A DNA stretch of 32,000 bases from an uncultured archaeon (GCA_964551375.1 CAZKBG010000002.1:45558-77557); one strand, 5' to 3'; positions 9,001 through 32,000 are shown, counted from the stretch's first letter. Notes: generated from the sequence alone by a model not told the origin. Made by a program: numbers and translations.

Positions 9001-12000
9001 ACACAAGCGCTTCCTTTGATGATTGCGACTCAAAATGTGCTTGCATTCAAAGAAGAACTTGAAGCAAAACTTCCAGTAAATCAAAAAAGCCTTGTAATAA
9101 CAGAAGCGCTTACAAACGAATCAGAATTTACAGTTCAAAATATTACAATCCAGACTGAATCAGAAAATGAAAAAGAAAAAACTGTTTCAAAAACAAGCAC
9201 AAGCACTACTGCAACTGACAGTTTCAAAGTAGTTGCTACCACAACCCCTGCATTAAGCAAAGGACAAAAACAGCCAGTGCAGATTACAGTAAGCTACCTT
9301 GGAGATTTAACAGAAAGCGCTGATGAAACAACCACAATTTCAATTTCAGGACTTGTTGAAGGAAAATTCCTCACAAAAACAACAGCAAAACTCCACATGA
9401 TGTATAATAAAAAACTTGACCCGACATGCCTTGAAGTAAAACCATCAAACGCGGTTCTAAATCTGCTTGGAAGCCCAGGCTCAACTGATACTACAACACT
9501 TGAAATTACAAATAACTGCGAAACAGCTCTTTACATTGCAAAAAGAATAAGAGAAACAACAACAGGCGCGCTAAGAGGAATGCAGCTTGACGCTGATAAT
9601 ATAGACCTTCAGCCAGGCGAAACAAAGAACCTTACAATTAGCGCGGTAAACCAGATAGCAAGAGGAGCCTCAAGAGAGCAATCCTTCGGATTTGAACTTG
9701 TTTATGACTCAAACGCAATTAAGAAAACAATTCCAGTAACAGTAAAAACAATTAATCCGGTATTTGCGCTTAATTACCCTGCGCAAATAACTCTATACTT
9801 AGCGCAGACAAATGTGAATGAAAAAGCAACTGCTGCACAGCCGATATTTATCTCAAATAGGTCATCCTTCCCAATTGATAATATACAATTAGCGCAAGGA
9901 ACTGATTCACTATCTCAGGCAAATGTAAAACTCACAATCGAACCAACTGCAACTGTAAGCCTCCTTCCTGGACAGGCAATATCCCCTCCAAAAATATTAT
10001 TCGCTTCAGCAAGCTCAAGAATAACCGAGCCGGTAAAAGCAAGAATTGACATAAGCGGAACAATGGGAAACCTTGAAAACAGGTCATGGCAGAACGACAA
10101 TTACGGCTATTCAAATAATTACACAAATTCTTCAAGATCAATAAATACTTACTCGCAGGCAAACTCAAGAAATTACTATAATAATTACTACGGAAGCACA
10201 GGGCAAATGCTTGGCTCAATAGATGTAACAGTATTCTATTCAGGATACAACTGCTTAACAGGACACGTTACTGAATCATTCTTCTTCCCAAGCGAAGGCG
10301 GGGAAATAGGAAAATTAATTAAAATAGTAAACGGATGCGCTGAACCAGTTACAGTAGTGGGAGTGTCGCAGGCATCTCAGGCAAAAAGCCAGACAATCTT
10401 TGGAATGCCAGCAGTAATGACTTCAATTATGATGGGAGTGCCAAGAGTAAGCGTAGCTCCAGGACAAATGATACAAGTTCCAATGACAATTAGAACAGCA
10501 ATACCAAATATAAAAAGACAAAATTACCAAGTAGTGCTTGAAGCAATTTCAGAAGTAAGCCAAACTCCAATTACTTCAAAACCATTCCCAGTAAATATTT
10601 CATCAGGAAACAGCACAAGAGAAGAGCATGTTAAAGGCGCTCCTGTAAAAGTAAAAGTATGCGGCTCGCAGACAGAAACAGAAGTAGTAATGCCAAAAAT
10701 AGTTGAAAACGCAAACTGCGCAGAAGGATACTGCGATGCAAAAAACGCTGTGAAATACATTGCCGCAAAAGTTGAAAAAGTAATACAAAACGCAAGATCC
10801 CAAGGATACTCATACAAAAACACAATTGAAAATGAAGTAATACCGTGCCAAGTAACAGGAATATGCACATTCGAAGAACTGAATATGGTTCCTGAAGAAT
10901 TTGACTTATACTTACAGAACGACAGAATCACTCCAGAACTGCTTGAAGCTGAATTAAACAAAGTTCAATACGAAGGCGCAAACAATACTCCATACAGAGA
11001 AACTGTTGGAACAACAAACGGATTAGTAGTAGAGCCAAAGTATGTTGAATTATCAGTAATCAGAGGGTTCATACTAACAGGATATTATAGAAGAATATTC
11101 CTTGACCCAGCATTTACTGGATGCGGATATTATAGAATTGCAATAAACGGAGCATTCCCAGCAGGACCTCAAGGGCTTGACTCAATGTCCCCAGTACTTT
11201 CAATAAATGCAGTTCCTCAAAATTCAAGAAGCTCCCTATTAACAAACGAGTGCGTTTCATCAATACAAAATATTGAAAACTTCAATCCAATAGACACAGG
11301 ACTTGAGCCTGGAAGAGAATTCGGCACATGGATGACAACAATAACCACTGATTCACAGCTAAAAGACCTCGCAACACAAATATCAAAATCAAGATACAAA
11401 TCAGAAAAGAGAGTGGCATCGGGAATCGGAAACAAAGTTGAATTAAAAGTTGGAGCATTAACTGGCATACTTGCGCAGGCATGCATAAGCGGAAATGACA
11501 GAAGAACAATTTCAGTTACAATTGCGGACACAATGCTAAGAACAAATGACGCTGCGACAAAAACTGCGTTTAACACAGCAGTTGTAAAAATGATTTCAGA
11601 CGCATTGAACGGCTCATTTGGGGACAACTGCCTTGTGAGAAGCGGAGATTCATACTCATGCGTTAACTTAACTGACTTGCCAAGCTCAATAGGCAAAAGA
11701 CAGCTTGCTCTCCTTAACACTTCTATTAACTTTATTTCCCAAAACGGGGGGTGCACAACTGGAACAGTGTACTCAAATGTTCCTGAATCGCTCAACTTTG
11801 AAGTGACTCCAAATTCAGTTAAAAAGGAATTTATTGGAATAAGAAGAATTTCAATAAGCGCTGATGATGCTTTAAACGGTCCGATTGCCACAATTTCAAA
11901 AACACCAACTGGAAATACTACAGTTGGAACAACTACAAATGCTTCCTCAACTTCATCAGCACAGCCTGCTGTTTCAACTCAACCACCTACTCCAACTCAG

Positions 12001-16496: not shown

Positions 16497-16640
16497 GCGC
16501 AAAATCAGTATTTTTTGAATTAAGAAAATGATTTTTCGCCAATAGATGCGTGTTAATCGCCATCAAGATAAGATTAATAAAGGGAAGAATGATATAATTA
16601 TTATAGTGAATAAGTTTTATTCAACTTATAAGTGATGAAA

Positions 16641-19600
16641 ATGGGTATTGGGGACTCTCTAAGAGACGCTTATTATTCGCTCGAAGACAAATGGTACTCT
16701 TTCATTGACGGAGTTTCTGAAAAAGTTCCCGCTGTGGGCAGTTTTGTTGACGCCCTTGAAGACAAAGGCATACCAAGTTTCCCTGCTTTTATATTATTAA
16801 TAATAATAATAGTGGCTCTATTGGCATTTTTCTTTTTATCATCATCACAAGCAACACTTACAATCAAAATCACTGACGACACAGGAACCGGAGTGGAAGG
16901 AGCAAGCGTAATAGTGCTCCAAGATGACGTTGAAATCGCAAATGTTACCACAAAAGAGAACGGACTTGCGGTATTTTTGCTTCCAAGAGGCGAATACAGC
17001 TTAAAAGTTGACAAAGAAAATTATTCTACTTCTACAAAATCAATAACGCTTGACGGCGACAAGGAAGAAGATTTGACACTAAGCCTTGAAGACACTACAA
17101 TTACAAAAGCTGTTTACTTAAAAACCGCTAACGGCGAACTTGTGAGCGGAAGCGGAACAGTAATTTACAGATGCAGAGGAGACACTGGAGATCAGACAGC
17201 GACTTATGCAAGCGGGAAGTTTGACGCGACAGTAAAAAAATCCTGTGCAGCAGTTGAAGTTATTACAATACAAAATTATAATTTAGTAGAGCCAATCGCA
17301 TCATTCTCTGGAAATTCAGCGGTAACAGTTGAACAAATAGTTGTATTGACTGGGAGAGTTACAGTTTCATTATCAATCGCAGGCTCAACAGATCTGCCTC
17401 CTGCGGGCGTAAGAGTACAGCTTGTTCCAAATGATAACACAACTTCAATAAGCGCAATAACACAAGGGGGCGCAGTAGTTGTATTTGAAGAAGTTCCTGT
17501 AAAAAGTTATTATGTTCTTGTAACAGACCCAAACGGAGCATTCTCTGTTTTTGACGGCTCAAAATTAAACGAGACAAAAAATGTTTTAAAAGGTGAAACA
17601 ACTCAATTCACAGCAGCGCTTGCAAGAGTGCAGGCGACAAAAATTATAGTTAATGTAAAAGACTCAGCAACAGGGCTTCCTGTAAAAGGAGCTGAAATAA
17701 AACTAACTTCCGCAGCAAACACAAATGATGTTTTAACAAAAATAACAGGCGCATTAGGGCAGGGCGAATTTTCAGTAGCGCAAGGCTCAAACTATGTTGT
17801 TACAGTTGACCATCCTGACTATGTTTCAGGAAAAACAATGCCCGCAGCTGCAGGCGAAACAATCAACTTCCAAGTGGAAAAGGTTGACTCATCAAACAGC
17901 AACACTTTAACAGTGCAGGTAGTTGACTCAAAAGACAAACCTGTTGATTATGCAAGAGTGGTACTGAAGAAAATTGAAGCAAACGAGCCAATTGTCGGAG
18001 AAAAAATTACAGGGGCAAGCGGAGAAGCGCAGTTCTTCAACCTTGAAGTAGGAAAATCATACATTGCGTCAATTTCAAAAGAAGGATTTGGAAGCCAGAC
18101 TTCGCCAAGCGTGCAAATAGAGCCAAAATCTGGAAAAACAGTAAAAGTAACATTTGATATTGGATACGGAAAAGTTTTAGTAAAAGTTCTTGACCCTGAA
18201 AAAGCAGTTCTTGCAGGAATCAGCGTAAAAGCATTTAATTCACTAACAACAAAGCAGGAAGGAGAAGCACTATTAACAGGAAGCGACGGAATTGCGGAGT
18301 TCTCTGAAATCAGAGCGGATAAGAAAGTATTCTTTATAATTGAATCAAGCGCTTACGCAAAATATTTCACAGCAACAGTGCAGCCAACTGCAAATGCAGA
18401 GCTTGGAAAAGAAGTAGTGCTAATGAGACCAACTGGAAAACTGCTTGCTGAGCCAGTAATAATATTTAGCGGAACAGAAGAAATGAAAAACGGCGCAGGA
18501 AGCGAAGTTGGAGTAAGCCAGGGAATTTACACTCTAAAAGCAATACTGCAGGTTCCAAAAGGACAATTCAGCGAAGCAGGAATGCATATTAGAACAGGAA
18601 AACAAACTCAAAATTTGACTAACAATTTAGAAGAAGACGGACTTTACATTTCAACAATAGAAGCATCAGGAAGAATAACAAAAGGAACCTCTTACACTCC
18701 GCCAACTGGATATGATATTGACTCAAAGAACACCACACAAGGCAATGCAAAATGGGCAAATATAGTGTGGAAAAACCCTGCTGAAGGAACTTACGAAGTA
18801 GAAGCTGAAGTAAGCGTAACAGAAACAAACCCAAATGTGCCTCTTGAATTATTCTACAGAGGATGGGCTAAAGGAAGCGCAACACTAAGAGACCCTGCAA
18901 GCAACGTAGCAGGAAATGAATTATACTCAATTGCAAAAAGAAAAATACTTTCAGTTGGCTCGGCAAGCATGTGCACAGCAAGCTTCTGCAAAAGTTATAT
19001 TCTAACTCCATTAACAGGCTCTGAAGCAGGAAGAGCAAGAATAGTAAGCGGAACAGTAGAAGCAAAGAAAGGAGTAACTTACTCACTAACAGCAGATTTG
19101 ACTAATTACAGCGGAAAAACAATTTCAGGAGCCGCACTAAGCGTTGAAGGAAAAAGCGTTGATATTAATTCAATTACAATTAATGATGTTCCTCAAACTG
19201 ATTTAGCAAGCTCAATAAATCTTGGAAACATCGGAGCGGATTCGCCAGTAAAAATAGTTGTTACATTCACAACAAAAACAAGCGGAAGTTCAGGAGTAAG
19301 ATTCATAATTAACTCCTCAACAAAGAACGAGTTTGACGAACTGATTGCAATTAATGTTAAAGTAAACAAAAAATTCCTGCTTTCAATTGTTCCAAAAATA
19401 ATTATCCCTTACATTAACAACACAATGTTCTTTGAAGCAACTGATGGAAATAACTCACTAAGCGGAGTATTAATCCAAATCAAAAACGGAAAGAACACGC
19501 TTGGAAAAGTTGAAACAAGCGGAGAAGGACTTGCAACTTACGAACTTAGCGAGCCAAAACTTGACGATGAAATAACATTTATCGCAAGCAAAGAAGGATA

Positions 19601-22600
19601 TGACAATGTTGAAGTTACAAAGAAAGTTGACGCTGCGCTACTAACAATAACTCCTCAATCAATATCTGAAACAATCAAAATAGGGGATGTTACTGGACTA
19701 ACTACAACAGTAATAATGCAAAATAACACTTCAAAAAATGTGAGACTTGGAAGCGTTCAAATAAACGGGGACATGAAAACTTATATTGACGCAAAATTCA
19801 TTGAAACATTAGCAGGAACAATAATCGAACAGGGAAAAGACAAAAACTTCACTTTATCACTAAAATTAAACTCAAGCGCAATTAAACTAAAAGCTCCAAA
19901 AGACTTGACTGGAACTGTGGTAATAAACACTGAAATACCAGGGACAAGCGCAGGATACTTAAACGAAATACCAATCTCAATAAGACTTTCAATGCCAGGG
20001 TACATGGATGACGCAAAATGCCTCAAAGTTACTCCTGCAACAATTGACTTTATTACAAGCGATACTGAAGAAAGCAAAACAGTAGTGCTGTCAAATTTAT
20101 GCACAGCAGAAGACTTCCAAATCCCGCTTCACGATATATCAGCTAAACTAAATGAAGCAATGAAAGTTGGAACAATAAGCGTAAACGGCTCTGGATTTGC
20201 GACAGTAAACCTTGGCGATAAATATGTGAAAATCGCAGACAGCCTTGAAAAAGATTCTGAAACAGAACTAACAATAAGATTCTCTCCAAATTCAGCAGTA
20301 TCAAGCGGAAAACAAACTGTTACTGTAACAATAATGGGAAAGAATATACTTGACGACAAAACTGAAGAAAAAGTTGAAACAACCCTAAAAGTTAATTCAA
20401 CAATGAACAGCCTTTCAAAATGCATTGAAATAGTAGAGCCATCAGGCGGAATACTGCTTGATATTGCTCCATGGAACTTAGGATACAACAGAATCCAGCA
20501 GTCAAACATGTCAGCATACGCTGGCGGGTACCAAGGATTCACAAATAGAAGCGCTCCATACAATATGTCTTACATGGGCGGAATGGGGATGATGGGATAC
20601 GGAACTAACGGATACGGTTCAGCATACGGCGGATTTAACTCATACGGAATGTACCCAGGAAGCGTAGCAGGCGGCGGAATGCAAAACATGAGCTACCAGC
20701 AGAATTCATTTATAATAAAGAACAACTGCCAGACAGATGTTGATATAGACCTTGACCCAGATTCAAGAGTTACAGTATCAACTGACAAATTCACACTATC
20801 TGCAAACAGCGACGAAACAGTTACAGTTGATCCGGGATACGTTCTTGGAAAATACAAAATAAAAATAAACGCAAAGCCAAAAGGAACAACAACTTCAATG
20901 AAAAACCTAAAAGAAGTTTCAGTGACAATAAGAAGACTTGGGGATATGGACACTGACTGCATTAAAACAAATGTAACAACAATTAACCTAAATTCATTCT
21001 TATACAGGCCTCAGAAATACTCTGTTTTCAATTACTGCTATGATACAGGAGCTGCATTATCAAGAAGCAATGTTGCATCAATTGAATGCTCGGCTCCGCA
21101 GAACAACAGTCTTGGATTAAATTACTTCCAGCAGGGACAAGAATCATACTACGGCTCAAGCTACCCTCTAAATGGACAGAATGCAACTTACAACAGTTAT
21201 ATCCAGCCAAGCGGATGCCAGACAAACTCATGCTCATTAATTACAGGAACAAGAGTAAGACAAAGAACTACTGAACAGGGGACAACAGGAACAATAGAAA
21301 GAGTAGACTTTGATGTAATGCCAAGCTCGCAATACATACCGCAGCAGAAATTATTTGACAATAAAGTCGGAAAATACGGAGCATTCCAAAACCTTAGCGC
21401 AATAAGATCATGGGCTACTGAAACCGACGCAAGAACTAATGTTTACGGAAATTTAAATATCAGCTACACAAACCAATACGGTTCGGCTGAATGCATGGAA
21501 TTCCCAATCACAATCACTGATGTTTGGAGAATGGGAGAAAGCATAGATTCGGCAATCAACTGGGGAGACCCAACAGCAAGGCCAAAAGACTGCCAAGAAG
21601 CTGACGCGCTGAATATTACTAAATACTGGGAGAATAAAACTCCAAATAAAGACGGAGTAGTTCCTGACAGCGGAGACGGATTTAATGCACAGGATAGATA
21701 TGTTTACATGGCAGAACCGCCAGCGCTAAAAATCGGACCATCGCCGACTCAAAACAGCATGAGTTACCCTTCATCTTACGGAAACAACATGTATGCATAC
21801 ATGAATCCTCAATACGGAATGTACAACAACCAGCAGGGCGCTCAATACTATAGTTCAGGAAATGAATCTTATATGAGAGGACAGCCAGCAAATAACGGGA
21901 ATTCTGGAAGCGCAACAAAGAACTGCGGACTTCTTGACGGAATTGATGTCAAAACTGTAATCAATCCAAAAGATGCAGGCGGAGCAAAAGTAACAGTAAC
22001 TGACAGAGGAACAGGAAGCATAATCAACAACTCAAGAGGCTCAAACTTAATGGTGGAAATTGACAGAAGCACAATGACAGTTAACTGTGTGCACTTAAAC
22101 ATTCCAATTACAGCAAAAGTAACAAGATCAATCAACTTTGAATCACAGGACTTGACATGGTTCCTTGATGTAAAATTCGCAAAGAAAGGAATACCTTACA
22201 ACGAAGCAGAATGCATGAAGACAACAACAAGCACAGTGACAGACTGCAAAGATGCATTAAGAAGCATACTTCTAAAGAACAACACAAAACAAAACGATGC
22301 TGCAGGAATTGAAGCTGCAATTAAAGAGCTTTTAGACAAGCGACCAGAATGCAGGCAATATGTTGATGTGTCAGTTGCAAATACTATTTTAGGGCAGATT
22401 GCTCAAGATACAAACTTAGGAAAAGGATGCGCTTTATCTCCTGCTGAATTCGGACACACTTTAATAAAAAGCACAAAGTCAACTCCTGCTGACACAGTTG
22501 ACTGCACACAATACTTCTGCAGCGGAGAAATGCTGAATTTATTCTTGTTAAAGAAATTCTCTGAGGCAAGAACCATGTTGAACAATGAATTATCCGATTT

Positions 22601-24212
22601 AAGGAGCCCGCTTGAAATAGAAAAGAAAAGCAAAGTCGCAAAATACGATGCTGCAAAAGATGTTATGATTTCAAGATTATACAGAAGAGCAATTGAAAGA
22701 GATATTAATATCTGCAACAGCGGAGCAAAAGCATTCTACTCAATTGAAGGCACAAAAGCGCTTGATATTTACGGCAAATACGAATTAAGCAATTTAAAAG
22801 TTGATTCAGCTGCAAAGAAAATAATCACTGACAAAGGCGCAGGAGCAGTTCCATTAACAAACATGGTTACATACGTTCTTGGCGCAAGCGACTTGAAGAA
22901 AGATTACAACAGTTTGCTAATCAAAGTTCCAGTTAATCCAGATGTAAACAAAGGGCTTGAAGGAATCGGATTTGTAGTATCAGGCTCGGATTATTACTTA
23001 TCACTTGAAACATACTCTGATTTATTGACTCAGGTTGCAAAAGACCTTGATAATGCTAAAACTTGCGATAAAGCAAACACTGCCTGCAAAATTACTCTGT
23101 GCGGAAGAAATGATGTTGTTCTTGAACCAAATGTAATAAAATACATTAATGACTTTGGACAACTCGTGAAAGGGGTATACGACAGAGAAGATATGGATCA
23201 GATTGATATTGAAGCAATTTACTCAAAGAATCCAAAATTAAACAAAGTTCATGACCTTGCTAAATTTAATTCAGTTCTTTCAAATACAAAAATTGGAAGC
23301 TCAAAATTAAATTCAGGACTTGCGCCGAGCGTTCTTCTTGCAAAAACAACACTTCCTGCAAATGGGTTTGATGCAAAAGCAATCCTGAATAATTCTTTAG
23401 GAGACCTTGGACAGTTAAAAATAGCTTATTCTGGAGAAAACAATCCTAAAATCGGAAGGTATTCGCTCGAACTTGATTATGCTTATGTTGGAACTGAAGT
23501 TTCAAAAGAAGCAAAAGCAACACTTTCTGACCATAATTCAACAATTGAGGGCGCTCCAAAAGTGCAAAATAACGCATTGCTATTATACGGACTTTCTGAA
23601 AATGACTTATTTGTTGTAAATTCAACAGATGCAATTTTCACAAGCCCTGCAAGAAATACAATTATTGGAGAAAGAACTATTGGTTTAGCAGGACAAATGG
23701 CATTCTTTAAGAAAATACCTTTAAAAGTAAGCGCAAGATTGTATGCCGGCGAAAGCGGATTAATGTACAAACCAGTTACAGGGCAAACATCCGTTCCGTC
23801 ATTGATTAACTGGTATGCTAGTGCGCAAGCTCCAAAAGGGCCTGATTCATTAGTTCAAGCAGGCAACGAGACTTGGTATAATATTAACATAATAAAATCA
23901 AACGAAACACAAAGTATTTATGGAATCTACTATTATCCTGATGGCGGAGCGCTTTTTGTTAACCGCGGAACTGCAAAGGGCGGGGAAATTACATTGACAA
24001 AAGCAGGGTATATGTTAAACATTCCAATCAGCACTGTTCCTTTGACAATACCTGGCGCAGATTCCCAGCGCAAAGAATTGTCGGCTGTTGTTTCAGCTAA
24101 CACAATGACGCTTGACGGACTCTTGCCTGAAATTAATGAAGGAAGAGCATGCTACTCGGATGACGGAACTTTGAACTGGAATGAAAGCAAATTAATCAAA
24201 GGCGCAAACTAA
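16641..24212 (+). CDS. Giant surface protein 2 (2523 aa from ATG 16641; the track ORF starts at GTG 16632): N-terminal signal-anchor plus many beta-sandwich repeats and Cys-rich regions
   Basis: MGIGDSLRDAYYSLEDKWYSFIDGVSEKVPAVGSFVDALEDKGIPSF plus a TM helix aligns with the N-terminus of giant 3 (MGIGESLKGIYYSGEEKWYAFWDKV...). GTGAT (16632-16636) lies 4 nt before ATG 16641. Repeated modules include TLTIKITDDTGTGVEGASVIVL and TKIIVNVKDSATGLPVKGAEIKL. Two Tyr/Gly/Met/Asn-rich low-complexity tracts. Confidence 0.85.
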   Translation: MGIGDSLRDAYYSLEDKWYSFIDGVSEKVPAVGSFVDALEDKGIPSFPAFILLIIIIVALLAFFFLSSSQATLTIKITDDTGTGVEGASVIVLQDDVEIANVTTKENGLAVFLLPRGEYSLKVDKENYSTSTKSITLDGDKEEDLTLSLEDTTITKAVYLKTANGELVSGSGTVIYRCRGDTGDQTATYASGKFDATVKKSCAAVEVITIQNYNLVEPIASFSGNSAVTVEQIVVLTGRVTVSLSIAGSTDLPPAGVRVQLVPNDNTTSISAITQGGAVVVFEEVPVKSYYVLVTDPNGAFSVFDGSKLNETKNVLKGETTQFTAALARVQATKIIVNVKDSATGLPVKGAEIKLTSAANTNDVLTKITGALGQGEFSVAQGSNYVVTVDHPDYVSGKTMPAAAGETINFQVEKVDSSNSNTLTVQVVDSKDKPVDYARVVLKKIEANEPIVGEKITGASGEAQFFNLEVGKSYIASISKEGFGSQTSPSVQIEPKSGKTVKVTFDIGYGKVLVKVLDPEKAVLAGISVKAFNSLTTKQEGEALLTGSDGIAEFSEIRADKKVFFIIESSAYAKYFTATVQPTANAELGKEVVLMRPTGKLLAEPVIIFSGTEEMKNGAGSEVGVSQGIYTLKAILQVPKGQFSEAGMHIRTGKQTQNLTNNLEEDGLYISTIEASGRITKGTSYTPPTGYDIDSKNTTQGNAKWANIVWKNPAEGTYEVEAEVSVTETNPNVPLELFYRGWAKGSATLRDPASNVAGNELYSIAKRKILSVGSASMCTASFCKSYILTPLTGSEAGRARIVSGTVEAKKGVTYSLTADLTNYSGKTISGAALSVEGKSVDINSITINDVPQTDLASSINLGNIGADSPVKIVVTFTTKTSGSSGVRFIINSSTKNEFDELIAINVKVNKKFLLSIVPKIIIPYINNTMFFEATDGNNSLSGVLIQIKNGKNTLGKVETSGEGLATYELSEPKLDDEITFIASKEGYDNVEVTKKVDAALLTITPQSISETIKIGDVTGLTTTVIMQNNTSKNVRLGSVQINGDMKTYIDAKFIETLAGTIIEQGKDKNFTLSLKLNSSAIKLKAPKDLTGTVVINTEIPGTSAGYLNEIPISIRLSMPGYMDDAKCLKVTPATIDFITSDTEESKTVVLSNLCTAEDFQIPLHDISAKLNEAMKVGTISVNGSGFATVNLGDKYVKIADSLEKDSETELTIRFSPNSAVSSGKQTVTVTIMGKNILDDKTEEKVETTLKVNSTMNSLSKCIEIVEPSGGILLDIAPWNLGYNRIQQSNMSAYAGGYQGFTNRSAPYNMSYMGGMGMMGYGTNGYGSAYGGFNSYGMYPGSVAGGGMQNMSYQQNSFIIKNNCQTDVDIDLDPDSRVTVSTDKFTLSANSDETVTVDPGYVLGKYKIKINAKPKGTTTSMKNLKEVSVTIRRLGDMDTDCIKTNVTTINLNSFLYRPQKYSVFNYCYDTGAALSRSNVASIECSAPQNNSLGLNYFQQGQESYYGSSYPLNGQNATYNSYIQPSGCQTNSCSLITGTRVRQRTTEQGTTGTIERVDFDVMPSSQYIPQQKLFDNKVGKYGAFQNLSAIRSWATETDARTNVYGNLNISYTNQYGSAECMEFPITITDVWRMGESIDSAINWGDPTARPKDCQEADALNITKYWENKTPNKDGVVPDSGDGFNAQDRYVYMAEPPALKIGPSPTQNSMSYPSSYGNNMYAYMNPQYGMYNNQQGAQYYSSGNESYMRGQPANNGNSGSATKNCGLLDGIDVKTVINPKDAGGAKVTVTDRGTGSIINNSRGSNLMVEIDRSTMTVNCVHLNIPITAKVTRSINFESQDLTWFLDVKFAKKGIPYNEAECMKTTTSTVTDCKDALRSILLKNNTKQNDAAGIEAAIKELLDKRPECRQYVDVSVANTILGQIAQDTNLGKGCALSPAEFGHTLIKSTKSTPADTVDCTQYFCSGEMLNLFLLKKFSEARTMLNNELSDLRSPLEIEKKSKVAKYDAAKDVMISRLYRRAIERDINICNSGAKAFYSIEGTKALDIYGKYELSNLKVDSAAKKIITDKGAGAVPLTNMVTYVLGASDLKKDYNSLLIKVPVNPDVNKGLEGIGFVVSGSDYYLSLETYSDLLTQVAKDLDNAKTCDKANTACKITLCGRNDVVLEPNVIKYINDFGQLVKGVYDREDMDQIDIEAIYSKNPKLNKVHDLAKFNSVLSNTKIGSSKLNSGLAPSVLLAKTTLPANGFDAKAILNNSLGDLGQLKIAYSGENNPKIGRYSLELDYAYVGTEVSKEAKATLSDHNSTIEGAPKVQNNALLLYGLSENDLFVVNSTDAIFTSPARNTIIGERTIGLAGQMAFFKKIPLKVSARLYAGESGLMYKPVTGQTSVPSLINWYASAQAPKGPDSLVQAGNETWYNINIIKSNETQSIYGIYYYPDGGALFVNRGTAKGGEITLTKAGYMLNIPISTVPLTIPGADSQRKELSAVVSANTMTLDGLLPEINEGRACYSDDGTLNWNESKLIKGAN
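20505..20708 (+). repeat. Tyr/Gly/Met/Asn-rich low-complexity segment 1 in giant protein 2
   Basis: NMSAYAGGYQGFTNRSAPYNMSYMGGMGMMGYGTNGYGSAYGGFNSYGMYPGSVAGGGMQNMSYQQNS. Confidence 0.75.
21741..21911 (+). repeat. Tyr/Asn/Gln/Met-rich low-complexity segment 2 in giant protein 2
   Basis: SPTQNSMSYPSSYGNNMYAYMNPQYGMYNNQQGAQYYSSGNESYMRGQPANNGNSGS. Confidence 0.75.
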
Positions 24213-24397: not shown

Positions 24398-25468
24398 GTG
24401 GATAATAGAGTGCTGACATTTGTACTAATAAGCATAATTGCATTCTTGTCAGGCTTTGCCGCTTCATACCTCTTTCCAATTCAAACTCCTTTTGTTGATG
24501 TTCCATTCAGCGTTCTTGCAATAGGATTAATCCTTGGAGGGGCCGCTTTTTTTGGATATCTTGGCTTTATTCCAGCACTTCTTTTGGGACTCCAGCTGGG
24601 CGCGGAAAAAAACGCGGCAGTATTCATTTACATTGCGCCTGTAATACTTGCAATTTATGCGGGAACTTATATTGGAGTTTTAATAAACAAAGATTTTGAA
24701 AGAAAAGAAATATTTGCAAAAAAAGCAAAAAATATTATTGTAATAGTGGCAATCGCCCTTGTAATATCATTCGCGGTTGAAATGGCGGTGCCGTACACTG
24801 TAGAGTACTGGCCGAAGGATTATCTTGGGATGAGTGTGGGCGGAGGATATATGTCATATGATTCCGATTTGACAGGGGAAAATATTATTTTAAGGGGAGA
24901 TTCATTAACAATTCCAATTGAATTAAAACAAATAGTTGTTGGAAAGAACAATGCTTCCGTGTTTAACACTTCAACGAATGCGATTTTAAAAATAAAAGAC
25001 GCTGATGAAGGCACGCCAGTTTATGGGGCTGAAGTTACTGCCACAAGCCAGAGCGGAAATGAACATGAATTTATTGAAACTTCAAGCGGAATGTACAAAA
25101 AAGATCAGTTCCCATTCGGAGAACAAGTAACATTAATTGTAAAATCAAAAGGATACGAAGAGTACAATAAAAAAGTTACATTTAACCGCGATATTATAAA
25201 TGAAATCTCGCTTACTCCAGAACCTGTGGGCGAGGAAGCAGAATCAAGCGTTACAATAAGGGTATTTGGAAGCGATGGAAAGACAATAAACCAGGCAAAA
25301 GTAACTGTTTATAATAAAGAAACATCCGCAACACTCCAAATAGGATACACTCAAAACGGACAAATTACGCTTAAAGCAATGACTGGGACAAGACTGAGAA
25401 TAGTTGTTGAAAAAGGAAGCACAGCCGCAGGGCTTATTGGAAAACTTGCGAGCCTTAAAAGAAGATAA
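24398..25468 (+). CDS. Polytopic membrane protein (about 5 TM helices) with C-terminal extracellular beta-sandwich domains (356 aa)
   Basis: GTG start with a strong AGGTGA ribosome binding site. Hydrophobic helices in aa 1-135 include VLTFVLISIIAFLSGFAASYLF, VLAIGLILGGAAFFGYLGFIPALLLGLQLG, VFIYIAPVILAIYAGTYIGVLI and IIVIVAIALVISFAVEMAV. The C-terminal part has carboxypeptidase-regulatory-like modules. Residues 282-341 are about 50% identical, by hand alignment, to residues 249-308 of giant protein 1. Confidence 0.75.
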   Translation: MDNRVLTFVLISIIAFLSGFAASYLFPIQTPFVDVPFSVLAIGLILGGAAFFGYLGFIPALLLGLQLGAEKNAAVFIYIAPVILAIYAGTYIGVLINKDFERKEIFAKKAKNIIVIVAIALVISFAVEMAVPYTVEYWPKDYLGMSVGGGYMSYDSDLTGENIILRGDSLTIPIELKQIVVGKNNASVFNTSTNAILKIKDADEGTPVYGAEVTATSQSGNEHEFIETSSGMYKKDQFPFGEQVTLIVKSKGYEEYNKKVTFNRDIINEISLTPEPVGEEAESSVTIRVFGSDGKTINQAKVTVYNKETSATLQIGYTQNGQITLKAMTGTRLRIVVEKGSTAAGLIGKLASLKRR

Positions 25469-25560: not shown

Positions 25561-25580
25561 AGTTTAATTGAAGCTTATAG

Positions 25581-25596
25581 AAAGGTATTTATATAG
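25581..25596 (+). promoter_or_regulatory. BRE/TATA-like promoter element for giant gene 3
   Basis: AAAGGTATTTATATAG lies about 50 nt upstream of ATG 25644. Confidence 0.3.
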
Positions 25597-25643: not shown

Positions 25644-28600
25644 ATGGGCATTGGGGAATCGCTAAAAGGAATATACTATTCTGGCGAAGAAAAGTGGTAT
25701 GCTTTCTGGGATAAAGTGGACGCACACATTCCTGTTTACAAAGTAATTGACCCAATTGATTCAGTAATACCGACATTTGCGCTGTTTTTGATTATTATCT
25801 TTTTAATTTTATTATTCGCAGGATATGCGCTTCTTGGCGGAATAGCTCCTGCAACCGCGACTCTAAAACTAAGCGTTGTTGACAGCGACGGAATGGGAGT
25901 AAGCGGAGCAACAGTGACTGTTGAAGGAGTTGATGGCGAATTCTACTCAAACGACTTCGGATTAATTGAAGACTTAATTGTTCCGTTTAATTCAACGCTT
26001 GAAGTAAATGCGGAGAAAGGCGAGAGCAAAACAACAATTCCAATTACAATTGACGAATTTGAAAAAATTGCAGAAGTAGTGCTTCCAGTTGAAAGAATAA
26101 GCTTTGAGCAGAAAACAATAAGATTCCAGAGCGAAGACGGCGCACTAATCCAAAGCGAATTAAGATTACATTACACATGCTCATCAGGAGTGGCTGCTCC
26201 TGAAGATGTTACAATTTACACAGGCAGCGCGAACTTAGCACAGCCTGCAAATTGCGGAACTCTTGAAGTAGAAGTAACTTCATCAAAATACGAAAGAGCA
26301 AGATTTTCAGTAAGCGGACCATCAGGAGTATTTACACTAAAATTACTTGCGCCGGTTGAAAAAGGACGAGCTACAGTAAACCTAAAATACGAATCAAGAT
26401 TAATCACAGAACAAGTTACAGTTCAGGCATTTAGGGCAGATAATGCATTCCTTCCAGTAAACAGCGCAACAAGCGTAAACGGACAAGTTCAATTTGAACT
26501 TCCACTTGGGGATTACAAATTCAAATCACTAATGCAAAGCGGGTACAAGCAGAAAGAATCATCAGTAGTTTCAATCACAAAAGCAAATTCAAACCCTGTT
26601 ATTGACTTAGATTTGCAGAAAGAAATAATCGGAGTAATTGTAGTTCAGGCAAAAGAAAATGGAGCTGCCTTAAGCGGAGTTCATATGAGCCTGACAAAAA
26701 AACTTCTAACCAGACAAGAGCCTGTAATTGACAGAGACACAAACGAAGGCGGATATGTTCAATTTGAAATTGCGGAAGACGCAAATTACACAGTAACAGC
26801 TACAAAAGATAATTACTGCGAAGTATCAGTTGCAGTATCAATAGGAGACTCAAGAGTAATCTCAATGAAGCAGAATGACTCAACATGCGGATACAAACTA
26901 ATTGCAAGAGTAATAGACCAGGACAATAAGCCGGTAGCTCACGCAAAAGCGGCAATATTCATTGAAACAGCAGAAGATATTTACAAAATGCCAAGAGCAG
27001 AACAAGTAACAGGATACAATGGGGACGCAAACTGGAACCCTGTAAGAAAAACAAACAGCGACGAGAAATTCAAAGTATTCGCATATAAAGCATCATACTC
27101 CGGATGGAGTGAAGCAAGAGTATTTGACTCGCTATCCTCAAGCACTCCATTTGTTGTAAAACTTGAAATCCCGATGGGAACAGTAAAAGTAATAGCAAAA
27201 GACAGAGACGCTAATCCATTGCAGTTTGCAGAAGTTCAGTTATTTGATGAATACGACGGAACAGCAGTAAGCGGCAGAAAATTAATTGAAAACGCTGACG
27301 GCTCAATTGAATTCAACTTAAAAGCTGACAAGAGAGTTTATGCAGTAGTAAAGAAAGAAGGATACGAATCATACACTACACTTCCAACAATGATGGTTGC
27401 AGGCGGAACAATTACATTTGACGTTGAACTATTCAAGCCACCTGTTCAGGAAATCTTTGTTAGATCGCTTGGATTCTTCAAAAACGGAACACCAGTTCTA
27501 AAAGTAGAGCCAAGCCAGGAATACGACGCATTGTTTGAATTAACTGCCCCTTCAACAAAAACATACTCAGAACTTGGATTCTTTGTAAGAATGGGCGCAG
27601 ATAATATGACTAAAACTGAGCTTGATAAAATATTTATCAAAGATGTAATGGCTTCAGGAGTAAAATCAATAGTAACAGGAGCGACTTACAATAAGCCAAT
27701 GGGATACTATAACACTGACTCAAAATACACTAACCTTGAAGAAAGCAAGTGGGCAGAAATAAAATGGCCAATGAACGGATATGTTCCTGGAAAAATCATA
27801 GTAGGAGTAAAAGTAAAAATCAGGCCAACTGCGCAGGCTGAAGAAAGACTTGAACTTGGATACAGAGCATGGGGCAAAACAACAAGCGGAGTATACGAAA
27901 GAGACTTAATTGACGACGAACTTGGAACAAGCCAGAGCTCAACAACAAAACAAGAACTTTACGCTTCAACAAAGCCAGATTACATTACAGTTGGAATGGA
28001 AACACTATGCGATACTCCAGAAAGCGGAAAATCATTCTGTATAACAGCAACTTACACTGATCCAGACGGATTCACAAAAAGCTTCAATGACTCATTTGAC
28101 ACTAAGAACAATACTCCTTACAATGTTTCAATCAAAATCATGAACAACTCAACAGTTGGATTTGATGACGCAAAAATAATGGTTGAAAACCCTGAAGAAA
28201 ATTTATACATGGGCACAATGACAGCAGTAACTCCAAGATTCTCTCCAAGCGAGATAAACGTAAACGGATACGCTACTGACTGGATTGACATGCCAAGATA
28301 TGTAAAGAACTCATCAATTGAAATCCAATCAATGCAATTAACTCCGCAAAAAACAGGGACAGGCACATTGCTTGTAAAAATACGCGAAGGCGCATCAATG
28401 ATTTATGAAAAAGCATTTACAGTAAATATTGCAAGCGACAAGAAATTAACAGTGCGATTCATGAAAGGCGGAGTATTTGGAGACGAAATGCCTAAATTAG
28501 TATCAGGAAAAACTGAACTACTAACAGTTAAAGCATTAAACACAGTAAGCGGATTAGAAGTACAAGACGCAGTAGTAAAATTATTCGACAGATTTGGAAC

Positions 28601-31600
28601 AAAACTATTTGAAGCAACTACAAACAAGCTTGGAGTAGCAACAATACAAATACCAGCATCACTTCCAGGCGAAAGATTAGTTCTTTCAATTGAAAAATCA
28701 GAATACGAAACAGTGAGAAAAGATATTGTAATTGCAGAAGATGTAGTAAGCGTAGACCCAACTTCACTAAACTTCACAGTTAACCCGCAGTCAAAACTAA
28801 CAGATATGAAAACAGTGAAAATCACAAACGAAACAGCAATTGACCTTTATATAAAAAGCATAACACTAACAGGAAAACTAAAGGGAGTTCTTGACGAAGC
28901 CTCAATTTCAGCATGGTTTGAGAACTTTAAAGGAAAGAAAATAAAATCACAAGACTATGAAGAAGTAGTATTCAAAGTAGCAAGCGCAGCAGTAGTTCCA
29001 ACAGCAGAAGACCTTGAAGGAACATTTAACATTACACTAATATCACAGGGAAAAGAATGGGTAAAAGAAATCCCTGCAAAAATCAGAGTAGGACTTGGAA
29101 AAGATGTTGACAACCAATCATGCCTTGAAGTAACAAAAACAATGTGGGACACAACAACAAGAGGAGCGCAGGTTGAAGCATCATTTGAACTAAGAAACAA
29201 CTGCACAGTAAACGGAGCGCCAGTAATTTTGAAAAACATCGGCGCAACAGTATCACAATCAACAACAGTAACAGGCACATTTAATGCGCAGTCAAAGAAC
29301 ATACAAGTAGAACTTGGAAGCGCATTTGCAAGAATATTTAAAACATCAATGGACAAGGGGGAGAAAGTTCCAGTAACAATAAAATTCACCCCAATGCCAG
29401 GCTCAGCAGGAATAGCAACAGGCTCAATAATATTTGAAGCGCTGAATAATACTGACTCAAAAGCGCAGAAACTAACTGCTGAAATGAAATACAATATAAT
29501 TTACGAAAACTTGCAGGACTGCGTAGTGCTTGGAGCAGACGAATTAACAATTGAAGAAGAAGGAAGCGGAACATTTACAGTAAACAATAACTGCAAATCA
29601 AAAGTAGATGTTATACTAAGACCACAAGACTTGCAGGGCTCAATAAATAACACTGACTTTAAATTAAACGCAGGAGAAAACAAAGAAGTAACTGTAAAAT
29701 CATACAAAGGGCAAATAGCAGGAGCATACAATGTAGTTCTTGAAGCAAGAAGCACAGGAGCATCACTTGAACCGGTTGCAAATATTAAAGTAATAATAGA
29801 GCCAAAATCAAGCTGCTTTAAACTTACAAGATACGTTTATGATATATTTGACTACGAAGACAGCGTAAATCCATTTGACGGAATAGACAGAGGATACTTA
29901 ATCAACAACTGCGTTACAAAGAATGTAACAGCAAAAGTAACAGGAACTATTCCTTACGACTCATCAGCAATCCTAAAAACAATGCTATGGGGCGGACTAG
30001 TAGGCGGAGTAACAGCATACTTTAAGACAGGAAAATTTTGGCCAGATTCATGGTTCAACAAAAAGGACCCAAAAGTATCCTCAAATATACAAACAGGATA
30101 CACTGATGTAGCGCACGCTCAAAGATCTGAACTTACAAGAGTAAGCACAGAAATGCAAACAGCAAAAGAAACAAATTACGGACAAATAGACGCTAAACTA
30201 AAGGCGCTTAAGAAACAAGCCGATGACACTAATGCAAAAGTAGTGAATAGATATAACTTAAATCGCGCAGAATGCGAAAAAATCTCAGCTAACCCTGCTG
30301 ATGCTTCAAGAATTGCATGCTTAACAAAAGCAACTTCAATAAAAGCAGACGCTCAAGCAATAATTACAAAACAATACGCTGCCGCTGAAACTGATATTAA
30401 TGCGTTAAGAGAAAAATTAAAGAAAGCTGAAGCAGAGTTCTCAACTCAATTAAAAGCTTCAGGCGAAAAGATGGATTCATACACAGAACAGCAGAGATCA
30501 AACGCTTCATTCCAAGTAGGACAAGGAACTATAAACAATGAGAAAGCAAACAGAGAAATGGACGCAACTCTAAGAGCAAATATTTCAAACTTAAGAAACG
30601 AAATGAACGCAAAGATTGACGCATGGAATGGATACAGAAGCGACTTCATGAACACACTTTACAAGAAATATGAAAAACTTGACTTAAGCGATGTAGAGAA
30701 ACAGAAGAATAACAAAATAACAGCTGATGCGGCTAAACCTGAAAAGTACTCATTAACAACTGCAGCGCTTGACGCAGTAACAGTTGACAAAGTAGAAGAG
30801 AAAGAGTTCTCAACAGCTCCAGCAATTACTGCTATTGACACAACAAAATCAGGACCAAGCCAGATAGCATCAAATGGACTTGCATCAACTAATGCTACAA
30901 CTGTAACTGCGACTGATGTAATAACATCATCAGATGGATATACTTTGATTAAAGATGATGGAACAAATCCAAGCGCGGCTCCAGCTGATTATCAGCCTAT
31001 GAACAGTTTGACAAGCAATATTGGAAGATATTACAGAAATCCTGAAAGTTTAATAGTCCGCCCAACTGGTAATGATTCTTACACAGTAACAAGAAATGAC
31101 GGGCAGTTAATTGGGACTTGGAGTTATAATAATTCAGTTTGGACTGAAACAATTGATTCAAGCACAAATTACTATGATAGTTCATTTAATCACTTAAAGA
31201 AAAATGCTAAAGTTGACGGCTTTTTCCTGCTTGCAACAAGCGGAACAGGAGCTTCAACAGGAAGCACTTCATCTTCTGGCTCAAACTCAAACCAGTCAAG
31301 CGGAATGAACGCAATATTAAACGGAGTAATTGGATACGGAGCAGGCTCGGTAATGCCTAACGGACTTGGCGGAGCACTTGCAGGCGCATTAACTACTGGA
31401 TTTATGCAGTGGATGCAGGCGCAAGACACTACAGTAAATTACAAAGACACTTTCGAAATGAACTGGATTGAATTTGTAAGTGCAACACTGGACAGCCCAA
31501 GCGGAGTAAAAATGGATGTGGGCGAAGCAATGTATGATTATGAAACTTACTACGGAACAACAGTAACTGGAAGCACAGTTTCAGAAACTACAAACGCAAC

Positions 31601-32000
31601 ATACTCAGGAAACATAAAATACAACGCAGAAGCATTGAATGCTACAGTTGGAACAGTGGAAGAAAGAGAATTGACATTCACAAACAGCGGAAAACTAATC
31701 CAGGAAAAGAAATGGACTCCGTTTGTAGGATTAATGACAGTAAAAGGACAAGAAAAAATATATGATACTACTTACAAATATGATGAGATTAAGGAAAAAG
31801 CAATAGAAAGAGGAGACTACGAAGAAGAAGACGGGTTCTTTGACAACTTCTTCTCAGGACCAAACAATGTAGGCGAAATAGCGCAAATAGCCGACTCTGA
31901 TATTGATGTTAACTCGGTAAGATCATACGAAAAGAAATTCCACTTGCTGTTTGAAGCATGGCAGTACGTTGATTGCGGACCAAGAACATACGCTTGCCCA
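25644..32000 (+). CDS. Giant surface protein 3, 3'-truncated by the window edge (at least 2119 codons); absent from the supplied ORF track
   Basis: My own translation of the frame with positions divisible by 3. An in-frame TAG sits at 25578-25580, and the first ATG is at 25644. The ORF track lists no + strand ORF in this interval, and the many short antisense ORFs mirror those inside giants 1 and 2, which is the basis for calling the frame open to base 32000; I hand-translated only 25644 to about 26460, 29880-31440 and the last 30 nt, so the intervening roughly 3.4 kb (about 26460-29880) and 31440-31970 are inferred rather than directly checked. The N-terminus MGIGESLKGIYYSGEEKWYAFWDKVDAHIPVYKVIDPIDSVIPTF plus a TM helix (FALFLIIIFLILLFAGYALLGG) is followed by TATLKLSVVDSDGMGVSGATVTVEG..., paralogous to giants 1 and 2. 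Confidence 0.85.
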   Translation, partial: MGIGESLKGIYYSGEEKWYAFWDKVDAHIPVYKVIDPIDSVIPTFALFLIIIFLILLFAGYALLGGIAPATATLKLSVVDSDGMGVSGATVTVEGVDGEFYSNDFGLIEDLIVPFNSTLEVNAEKGESKTTIPITIDEFEKIAEVVLPVERISFEQKTIRFQSEDGALIQSELRLHYTCSSGVAAPEDVTIYTGSANLAQPANCGTLEVEVTSSKYERARFSVSGPSGVFTLKLLAPVEKGRATVNLKYESRLITEQVTVQAFRADNAFLPVNSATSVNGQVQFELPLGDYKFKSLMQSGYKQKESSVVSITKANSNPVIDLDLQKEIIGVIVVQAKENGAALSGVHMSLTKKLLTRQEPVIDRDTNEGGYVQFEIAEDANYTVTATKDNYCEVSVAVSIGDSRVISMKQNDSTCGYKLIARVIDQDNKPVAHAKAAIFIETAEDIYKMPRAEQVTGYNGDANWNPVRKTNSDEKFKVFAYKASYSGWSEARVFDSLSSSTPFVVKLEIPMGTVKVIAKDRDANPLQFAEVQLFDEYDGTAVSGRKLIENADGSIEFNLKADKRVYAVVKKEGYESYTTLPTMMVAGGTITFDVELFKPPVQEIFVRSLGFFKNGTPVLKVEPSQEYDALFELTAPSTKTYSELGFFVRMGADNMTKTELDKIFIKDVMASGVKSIVTGATYNKPMGYYNTDSKYTNLEESKWAEIKWPMNGYVPGKIIVGVKVKIRPTAQAEERLELGYRAWGKTTSGVYERDLIDDELGTSQSSTTKQELYASTKPDYITVGMETLCDTPESGKSFCITATYTDPDGFTKSFNDSFDTKNNTPYNVSIKIMNNSTVGFDDAKIMVENPEENLYMGTMTAVTPRFSPSEINVNGYATDWIDMPRYVKNSSIEIQSMQLTPQKTGTGTLLVKIREGASMIYEKAFTVNIASDKKLTVRFMKGGVFGDEMPKLVSGKTELLTVKALNTVSGLEVQDAVVKLFDRFGTKLFEATTNKLGVATIQIPASLPGERLVLSIEKSEYETVRKDIVIAEDVVSVDPTSLNFTVNPQSKLTDMKTVKITNETAIDLYIKSITLTGKLKGVLDEASISAWFENFKGKKIKSQDYEEVVFKVASAAVVPTAEDLEGTFNITLISQGKEWVKEIPAKIRVGLGKDVDNQSCLEVTKTMWDTTTRGAQVEASFELRNNCTVNGAPVILKNIGATVSQSTTVTGTFNAQSKNIQVELGSAFARIFKTSMDKGEKVPVTIKFTPMPGSAGIATGSIIFEALNNTDSKAQKLTAEMKYNIIYENLQDCVVLGADELTIEEEGSGTFTVNNNCKSKVDVILRPQDLQGSINNTDFKLNAGENKEVTVKSYKGQIAGAYNVVLEARSTGASLEPVANIKVIIEPKSSCFKLTRYVYDIFDYEDSVNPFDGIDRGYLINNCVTKNVTAKVTGTIPYDSSAILKTMLWGGLVGGVTAYFKTGKFWPDSWFNKKDPKVSSNIQTGYTDVAHAQRSELTRVSTEMQTAKETNYGQIDAKLKALKKQADDTNAKVVNRYNLNRAECEKISANPADASRIACLTKATSIKADAQAIITKQYAAAETDINALREKLKKAEAEFSTQLKASGEKMDSYTEQQRSNASFQVGQGTINNEKANREMDATLRANISNLRNEMNAKIDAWNGYRSDFMNTLYKKYEKLDLSDVEKQKNNKITADAAKPEKYSLTTAALDAVTVDKVEEKEFSTAPAITAIDTTKSGPSQIASNGLASTNATTVTATDVITSSDGYTLIKDDGTNPSAAPADYQPMNSLTSNIGRYYRNPESLIVRPTGNDSYTVTRNDGQLIGTWSYNNSVWTETIDSSTNYYDSSFNHLKKNAKVDGFFLLATSGTGASTGSTSSSGSNSNQSSGMNAILNGVIGYGAGSVMPNGLGGALAGALTTGFMQWMQAQDTTVNYKDTFEMNWIEFVSATLDSPSGVKMDVGEAMYDYETYYGTTVTGSTVSETTNATYSGNIKYNAEALNATVGTVEERELTFTNSGKLIQEKKWTPFVGLMTVKGQEKIYDTTYKYDEIKEKAIERGDYEEEDGFFDNFFSGPNNVGEIAQIADSDIDVNSVRSYEKKFHLLFEAWQYVDCGPRTYACP

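Follow-up and report, generated by a model that had tools for sequence, protein, structure and literature searches.

The proteins nearest in kind to the one reported here are the SPEARE proteins of Nanohaloarchaeota (Hamm et al. 2019, PMC6642349; PMC10266531), with which our comparison is by description only. SPEARE proteins are 5,000-9,400 amino acids (aa) long, vary between lineages and contain a VirB4/TraG-like ATPase domain; another gene for an ATPase lies adjacent to theirs (PMC10266531). Here we describe giant 3, the product of a very long gene in a 32,000-nucleotide (nt) stretch of DNA from an uncultured archaeon (GCA_964551375.1 CAZKBG010000002.1:45558-77557), referred to as the window and corresponding to G000:C2:45558-77557 in our contig numbering. 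The source genome (1.09 Mb, 10 contigs, 93% complete) belongs to the Iainarchaeota, a DPANN lineage. Giant 3 resembles SPEARE in its DPANN origin, its length of thousands of residues, its membrane anchor, its immunoglobulin (Ig)-like or beta-sandwich repeats, its coiled-coil part and the surface role proposed for it. A full-text literature search found no published description of these Iainarchaeota giants. With a probability of roughly 0.7, we read giant 3 as a single-pass, N-terminally anchored extracellular fibre, which would display a conserved head and a variable insert with a putative binding function.

The gene occupies the end of the window and continues beyond it:

25644..32000, plus strand: giant 3 coding sequence, codons 1-2119 of 2757, from the open frame and 26 full-length orthologues

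A preliminary description of the window had proposed a third giant gene of at least 2119 codons at 25644-32000. When open reading frames (ORFs) were listed with open ends allowed, the frame starting at ATG 25644 on the plus strand was returned with exactly 2119 codons, open at its 3' end, and the program's translation ended with the same ...VDCGPRTYACP that had been read by hand as the final codons of the window. The explanation offered for its absence from the original ORF track, namely the want of a stop inside the window, was correct, as frames running off the edge had been dropped from that list; only short minus-strand ORFs of 82-179 aa overlap the gene, as had also been noted. The ORF makes up 19.9% of the window, against an earlier figure of about 20%. 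An in-frame stop, which the description had named as the finding that would speak against the gene, is absent across 25644-32000 and before the 2757th codon on the contig. The extension of the contig that it had recommended places the stop 1917 nt beyond the window end (~coordinate 33917), so that giant 3 spans C2:71201-79474 and has 2757 codons, 638 of them past the window edge, and the window holds the 5' 77% of the gene. At the local base composition (A 0.40, T 0.22, G 0.20, C 0.18), stops are expected in 6.95% of codons, and the chance of 2119 open codons is ~1e-66. Separately, the sense strand of 25644-32000 is strongly A-rich (A = 0.40, AT skew ~+0.3), a bias that runs through all giant genes of the window.

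The conservation of giant 3 is that of an intact gene. When residues 2060-2757 were used as a database query, 30 proteins were returned, the query among them, nearly all of 2600-3000 aa and all unnamed or 'hypothetical', several of them from metagenome-assembled genomes (MAGs) labelled 'Candidatus Diapherotrites archaeon' or 'archaeon'. From related MAGs we obtained 26 full-length orthologues of 2615-2997 aa, which share 40-77% identity with giant 3, are colinear with it from end to end and align almost without gaps except in one insert. In the resulting 27-sequence alignment Met1, L7, K8, Y11, W18 and Y19 never vary. Since Met1 and the motif following it are thus fixed among orthologues and the preceding in-frame stop ends at 25580, the true start is ATG 25644. 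Neither a stop, a frameshift nor a run of N was found in the gene, the contig's only N run lying far off. Giant 3 is a genuine, intact and conserved gene, and its mean identity to the orthologues is distributed as follows:

Residues 1-50: mean identity to giant 3 of 0.77, the most conserved stretch
Residues ~51-1450: mean identity to giant 3 of 0.37-0.65
Residues 1500-1850: mean identity to giant 3 of ~0.1
Residues 1900-2757: mean identity to giant 3 of 0.37-0.65

These stretches match an architecture of leader, anchor, stalk, insert and C-terminal module, encoded in this order:

25644..25841, plus strand: leader (residues 1-40) and the sole strong transmembrane (TM) helix (residues ~41-62), from conservation and hydrophobicity
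25851..29933, plus strand: stalk, residues ~70-1430, from PF13620, an iterated hidden Markov model (HMM) and Cys pairs
29961..30026, plus strand: Gly-rich hydrophobic helix A, residues ~1440-1461, ...LWGGLVGGVTAYF..., from the alignment and the model
30075..30668, plus strand: three long predicted helices, residues 1478-1545, 1554-1626 and 1632-1675, from AlphaFold2 model m2bdcf40a9b3f, predicted local distance difference test (pLDDT) 70-91
30669..31283, plus strand: Ser/Thr-rich disordered linkers (pLDDT <50) and a predicted five-strand beta unit at residues ~1803-1845 (pLDDT 70-76)
31293..31418, plus strand: Gly/Ala-rich hydrophobic helix B, residues ~1884-1925, ...GLGGALAGALTTGFMQWMQAQDT..., from the alignment and the model
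31419..32000, plus strand: start of the conserved Cys-rich C-terminal module (C-module), residues ~1926-2757 (~830 aa), of which 638 codons lie beyond the window

In an alignment with five other giants of the genome, the N-terminus of giant 3 shows a ~40-residue leader of the form G.YY..E.KWY.F.D...P, after which come a (V/I)P(S/T)F motif and one TM helix. On the 19-residue Kyte-Doolittle (KD) scale this helix peaks at 3.06, with a median of 3.16 among the 27 orthologues. Giant 3 has both features that define the family of leader-anchored giants, the leader itself and a colinear stalk after the anchor.

The stalk measures ~1360 aa. With the iterated HMM, we located six CarboxypepD_reg-like sandwiches in it at residues 72-144, 241-319, 330-408, 417-505, 512-591 and 958-1037. 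PF13620 matches with 48.9 bits in the window part and 39.6 bits at full length, at a cut-off of 32.3, and this match defines the fold, not the function. The fifth and sixth sandwiches are separated by a conserved region at 600-950 (~340 aa), for which Pfam (to E = 1), NCBIfam, PHROG, PADLOC and PDB profiles gave no family match beyond beta-sandwich and coiled-coil noise, and further Cys-paired beta domains follow after 1037. The stalk repeats are colinear in giants 1-4, as seen with the iterated HMM and in BLASTP alignments to giants 2 and 4 that extend across ~1300-1400 residues. Since we found neither tandem DNA repeats nor DNA-level similarity between the stalk domains, the stalk is not a recent repeat expansion. 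Six Cys pairs of the stalk are invariant in the 27-sequence alignment, invariant pairs being present all along stalk and head, and N-glycosylation sequons occur in the stalk at 1.44 times expectation. Considering these Cys pairs and sequons together with the PF13620 sandwiches, the body of the protein seems to be extracellular. The sequon densities of the central region and the C-module, 1.07 and 1.12 respectively, do not discriminate topology.

Between stalk and C-module, the region flanked by helices A and B behaves differently from the rest of the protein. The insert ranges from 273 to 652 aa among orthologues at an identity of ~0.1, while the two helices are kept in character across all orthologues. 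In giant 3 the three long helices of the insert probably form an elongated three-helix bundle, judging from the AlphaFold2 model; when the central-region model was compared with PDB and BFVD, only generic helical bundles and compositional coiled-coils were returned and no match fell under E = 0.01. Inserts of several orthologues (P0018, P0020-P0025) hold 12-18 Cys, and that of orthologue P0020 holds a LysM domain at residues 1992-2034 (38.3 bits, cut-off 20.9), which lies between the end of helix A (1456) and the start of helix B (2072). LysM is an extracellular glycan-binding module. At the TM grade of KD >=1.6, helix A passes in 0 of the 27 orthologues, with a median of 1.08, and helix B in 5 of the 27. 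Since the helices fall below TM grade and orthologue inserts carry many Cys and a LysM, the insert is most likely exposed and behaves as an exchangeable cassette, a site that apparently takes up different small domains in different lineages. Two sources of the variation were considered and rejected. Giant 3 is not a target of a diversity-generating retroelement, as no reverse transcriptase (PF00078) was matched in the 93%-complete genome, with control genomes positive, and BLASTN against the genome gave no template/variable pair. Repeat-driven variation was set aside because the gene contains no tandem DNA repeats.

The C-module is the second well-conserved half of the protein. Its identity among orthologues is 40-65%, it contains ~14 mostly invariant Cys, and the motifs DGRQGYGA, WTGIGQGC and GGDYYWNN are strongly conserved. 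The module was present in 172 of the 201 sampled genomes of the phylum and in 54 of the 58 of high quality; all positive genomes belong to one order, and none was found among the sampled genomes outside that order. Genomes usually carry it several times, each copy closing an open frame of 2300-3000 aa. A phmmer search of 1.84 billion representatives gave 341 clusters at E <= 1e-3, 89 of them at E <= 1e-30, with matches nearly always C-terminal. Searches of Pfam (to E = 1), NCBIfam, PHROG, PADLOC and the PDB sequence profile gave no match to it beyond beta-sandwich and coiled-coil noise, and Pfam and NCBIfam scans revealed no enzyme signature in the head or in the full protein. We modelled residues 1894-2757 with AlphaFold2 from a 30-sequence alignment (model m8457ececdb11). 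The mean pLDDT was 73, with 80-91 over the last ~400 residues, and the predicted structure is mostly beta with helical linkers. A Foldseek comparison with PDB and BFVD picked out a CARDB-like sandwich subdomain at residues ~2226-2334, with a template modelling score (TM-score) of ~0.65 over ~120 aa, and no match to the whole fold, the query TM-score being at most 0.14. Matches to cycloisomaltooligosaccharide glucanotransferase, integrin and fusexin structures were discarded as multi-sandwich artefacts with a root-mean-square deviation (rmsd) above 20 Å. The preliminary description had anticipated a C-terminal signal, and in this respect it was not borne out: the protein ends ...NARENTCIDKRP, with neither a hydrophobic tail nor PGF-CTERM. 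Giant 3 as a substrate of a PGF-CTERM/archaeosortase A system was rejected likewise, as its C-terminus ...FKSQMNARENTCIDKRP contains no hydrophobic segment and no PGF-CTERM family match was obtained.

Giant 3 is one of several paralogous giants. The earlier proposal that it shares leader, TM helix and repeats with giants 1 and 2 held for both, with uneven strength. Against giant 2 (16632-24212), BLASTP gave E = 1e-58 over residues 1-1294 at 24% identity, and against giant 1 (6007-14883), a much weaker E = 9e-8 over ~800 residues. The closest paralogue is giant 4, with E = 1.6e-55 over the N-terminal 1400 aa and, in addition, the C-terminal module. Giant 4 (2538 aa; C2:79620-87236, L002:8620-16233) lies outside the window and begins 145 nt after giant 3; it has the same leader, a colinear stalk and the C-module, with its own Gly-rich helix pair around a shorter Ser/Gly-rich insert that contains no long helices. 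Two more giants, of 2123 aa and 1743 aa, are encoded upstream on the contig, and the N-terminal leader is common to six giants of the genome, namely giant 3 and five others (giants 1, 2, 4 and 5 and C1:807844). The C-module is shared with giant 4 in two blocks (E = 1e-20 and 6e-13) and with two leaderless 1743-aa proteins, and one of its blocks also occurs in the 2123-aa giant. At locus L003 (G000:C2:25487-37077), the genes for this 2123-aa giant, which bears the leader, and for a 1743-aa protein that lacks it share 13 nt. The latter protein has its own N-terminal anchor and a C-module of the giant 3 type, and the C-module is therefore also found on leaderless proteins.

The surroundings of the gene are conserved as well. 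We examined two orthologue loci, in which giant 3 is 53% and 45% identical over the N-terminal ~1500 residues. In both, the gene order is a ~497-aa prepilin-like protein, giant 2, a small membrane protein of 161-166 aa, giant 3, giant 4, p139 and p108. The giants are 35-53% identical to their positional counterparts and ~22-25% identical to their paralogues; as identity to the positional counterpart is far higher, the paralogues are ancient and conservation extends to the array as a whole. In the most distant array (L005:18968-20129), giants 3 and 4 are separated by a PIN-domain gene and, on the minus strand, two small ORFs, an insertion that is probably a toxin-antitoxin system. In a 1.09-Mb genome stripped of most other functions, the four giant genes account for ~3% of the total. 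Given this share of the genome, the conserved order, the one-to-one orthologues and the order-wide C-module, an important surface role is implied, in a phylum without a cultured member.

Taken all together, these features suggest how giant 3 could work. The N-terminal helix would anchor the protein behind its conserved ~40-residue leader, predicted to be cytoplasmic, and a stalk of roughly 14 disulfide-stapled beta-sandwiches would project from the membrane. A sandwich domain usually measures ~3.5-4 nm, and from this figure the stalk may act as a spacer of some tens of nm. At its far end, the conserved ~830-aa head and the swappable insert may bind a ligand, located either on some other surface or on the envelope of the cell itself; for the insert, exposure is suggested by its hypervariable length and sequence, by up to 18 Cys and by the LysM of P0020. 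The Gly-zipper-like helices could serve for hinge packing or for membrane activity. Giants 1-4 and the interleaved small membrane proteins may act together as one conserved surface apparatus.

Several observations weigh against a binding fibre. No recognisable binding fold was found in the head, and binding is argued from position and analogy. Confidence in the structure models is moderate (pLDDT 73 and 65), and the two conserved Gly-rich helices are not explained by a simple fibre. One-to-one orthology with 40-77% identity is unusually conservative for an adhesin, and a structural role would fit at least equally. Furthermore, a host ligand should not be assumed, because a free-living way of life has been suggested for Iainarchaeota (PMC10936187).

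Such conservation would also fit giants 1-4 as the building blocks of a permanent coat or sheath, S-layer-like or canopy-like, with the head of giant 3 making lateral contacts. The near-universal occurrence of the C-module in the order, ancient paralogues kept one-to-one in a fixed order, strong gap-free conservation, and small polytopic membrane proteins conserved in the array are all consistent with a coat. Pfam-A and NCBIfam, on the other hand, place no S-layer family in giant 3, and whole-library scans, with the curated S-layer models (S_layer_N/C, S-layer DUF1608 and others) among those covered, returned beta-sandwich families only, a weak negative because divergent S-layer proteins often escape such models. 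In addition, ~14 tandem sandwiches with a hypervariable exposed insert, once containing LysM, are more typical of projecting fibres. We consider a coat possible, if on balance doubtful.

More speculatively, giants 1-4, the three small polytopic proteins, a 495-aa prepilin-like protein, a pilus-type ATPase and a mini archaeosortase might together constitute a new order-wide surface organelle. Giant 3 would then contribute a head of new fold and a cassette insert between Gly-zipper helices, an exchangeable element for ligand binding or membrane activity. We regard this larger proposal as unlikely at present. If it is true, the attachment targets of these ultra-small cells would be set by the insert.

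The Gly-zipper-like helices also bear on whether giant 3 could be a contact-dependent, membrane-active device, in which these helices and the bundle would enter the membrane of a partner for bridging or delivery. The helices are amphipathic and conserved though the sequence between them varies, the organism belongs to the DPANN archaea, the neighbourhood encodes a pilus-type ATPase, and the LysM of the one orthologue could bind a bacterial wall. This role has been proposed for nanohaloarchaeal giant proteins. Against such a device, Pfam and NCBIfam scans of the full protein gave no ATPase family, so that the VirB4/TraG-like ATPase of SPEARE is lacking, and no other secretion domain was found. 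No likeness of giant 3 to pore-forming or fusion proteins was found, the fusexin match being meaningless (TM-score 0.10, rmsd 33), and the lifestyle of Iainarchaeota is unsettled (PMC10936187). A membrane-active device seems improbable to us.

A different topology was also weighed, in which helices A and B would be transmembrane, the insert cytoplasmic and both conserved halves outside. The two conserved hydrophobic helical segments do bracket the insert, Lys-rich residues follow helix A, and the conserved Cys pairs of both flanking halves would fit an out-in-out arrangement. The hydrophobicity argues otherwise, helix A being below TM grade in 27 of 27 sequences (median 1.08, compared with 3.16 for the true TM helix) and helix B above it in only 5. 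Up to 18 Cys in orthologue inserts and the LysM of P0020 are both typical of the outside, and the Ser/Thr-rich linkers are of a sort typically seen where a protein is exposed and glycosylated. Given the hydrophobicity values and the Cys and LysM found in orthologue inserts, giant 3 is not placed among polytopic proteins, and we judge three passes very unlikely. That the frame is a non-functional chance frame, pseudogene or assembly chimera, for which one could cite only a MAG in 10 contigs, some of foreign GC content, is next to impossible, being refuted by a chance of ~1e-66, a sequence free of stops, frameshifts and N runs, 26 independent orthologues from other assemblies that are colinear throughout, and an identical gene order. 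Contigs C3, C7 and C10 of this genome are short and have 57-59% GC, compared with 38% in the remaining genome; C3 encodes two proteins of >1000 aa, and a foreign origin, from a virus, a plasmid or contamination during binning, is probable for all three.

Returning to giant 3 as an anchored fibre, its immediate flanks are a membrane protein and another giant. Two features lie directly upstream of the gene:

24398..25468, plus strand: p356, a four-helix membrane protein, whose N-terminal ~150 aa are conserved between giants 2 and 3 in relatives
25580..25595, plus strand: BRE/TATA-like element gaaaggtatttatata, ~49 nt 5' of the ATG, read directly in the sequence

p356 has 356 aa, compared with 161-166 aa in relatives, and its residues 195-339 are 41% identical to residues 162-306 of giant 1, so its C-terminal half looks like a captured pair of giant 1 stalk repeats. 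The proteins p139 and p108 and the N-terminal 150 aa of p356 are polytopic membrane proteins, for which no paralogues were found elsewhere in the genome or next to other C-module giants. The genes for p139 and p108 (G000:C2:87348-88093) follow giant 4 directly, overlap at start and stop, and are 68% identical to their counterparts at locus L004; both proteins are candidate membrane partners of the giants. Further upstream, the window encodes three collagen-like proteins, a T2SSE-type ATPase, which lies 20 kb from giant 3, and a small archaeosortase-like protein.

The element gaaaggtatttatata is likely giant 3's own promoter, as far as its sequence and position allow. Similar A/T elements occur 45-55 nt 5' of giants 1, 4 and 5, and a T7 run lies 3' of the giant 3 stop. 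With TATA-like elements preceding giants 1, 3, 4 and 5 and a T7 run after giant 3, the giants look like separate archaeal transcription units. Scans for bacterial-type promoters and terminators at giant 3 gave matches at chance level only.

For annotation, the case indicates that frames running off a window edge should be listed, since a fifth of the window looked non-coding otherwise. For experiments, the ~830-aa module without a known fold and the hypervariable insert, with LysM in one lineage, offer handles.

Giant 3 departs from SPEARE in length, anchor and pattern of conservation, and has a distinctive leader, a different conserved C-module and strict one-to-one orthologues within an array of four giants. 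The 7651-aa adhesin of Mobiluncus mulieris (PMC10619420) resembles giant 3 in its long stalk of Ig-like or prealbumin-like domains, its intradomain cross-links and its distal region presumed to bind. The cross-links of giant 3 are presumably disulfides, in contrast with those of the bacterial adhesins. Proteins of the SiiE, LapA and Bap types are further giant repeat adhesins of bacteria. While bacterial giant adhesins are held by LPXTG or type I secretion system (T1SS) retention anchoring and contain near-identical tandem repeats, giant 3 has an N-terminal TM helix and old, divergent domains. S-layers of the SlaA/SlaB type and archaeal envelope glycoproteins are, like giant 3, archaeal, extracellular, beta-rich, sequon-rich and conserved with membrane partners. 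Giant 3 differs from the SlaA/SlaB type in that it is far longer, carries a variable insert, has four paralogues and shows no S-layer signature, C-terminal anchor or PGF-CTERM. By this comparison, giant 3 belongs to a kind of protein that is uncharacterised yet not unprecedented, the giant anchored surface fibre, and both the head and the insert of giant 3 are genuinely interesting.

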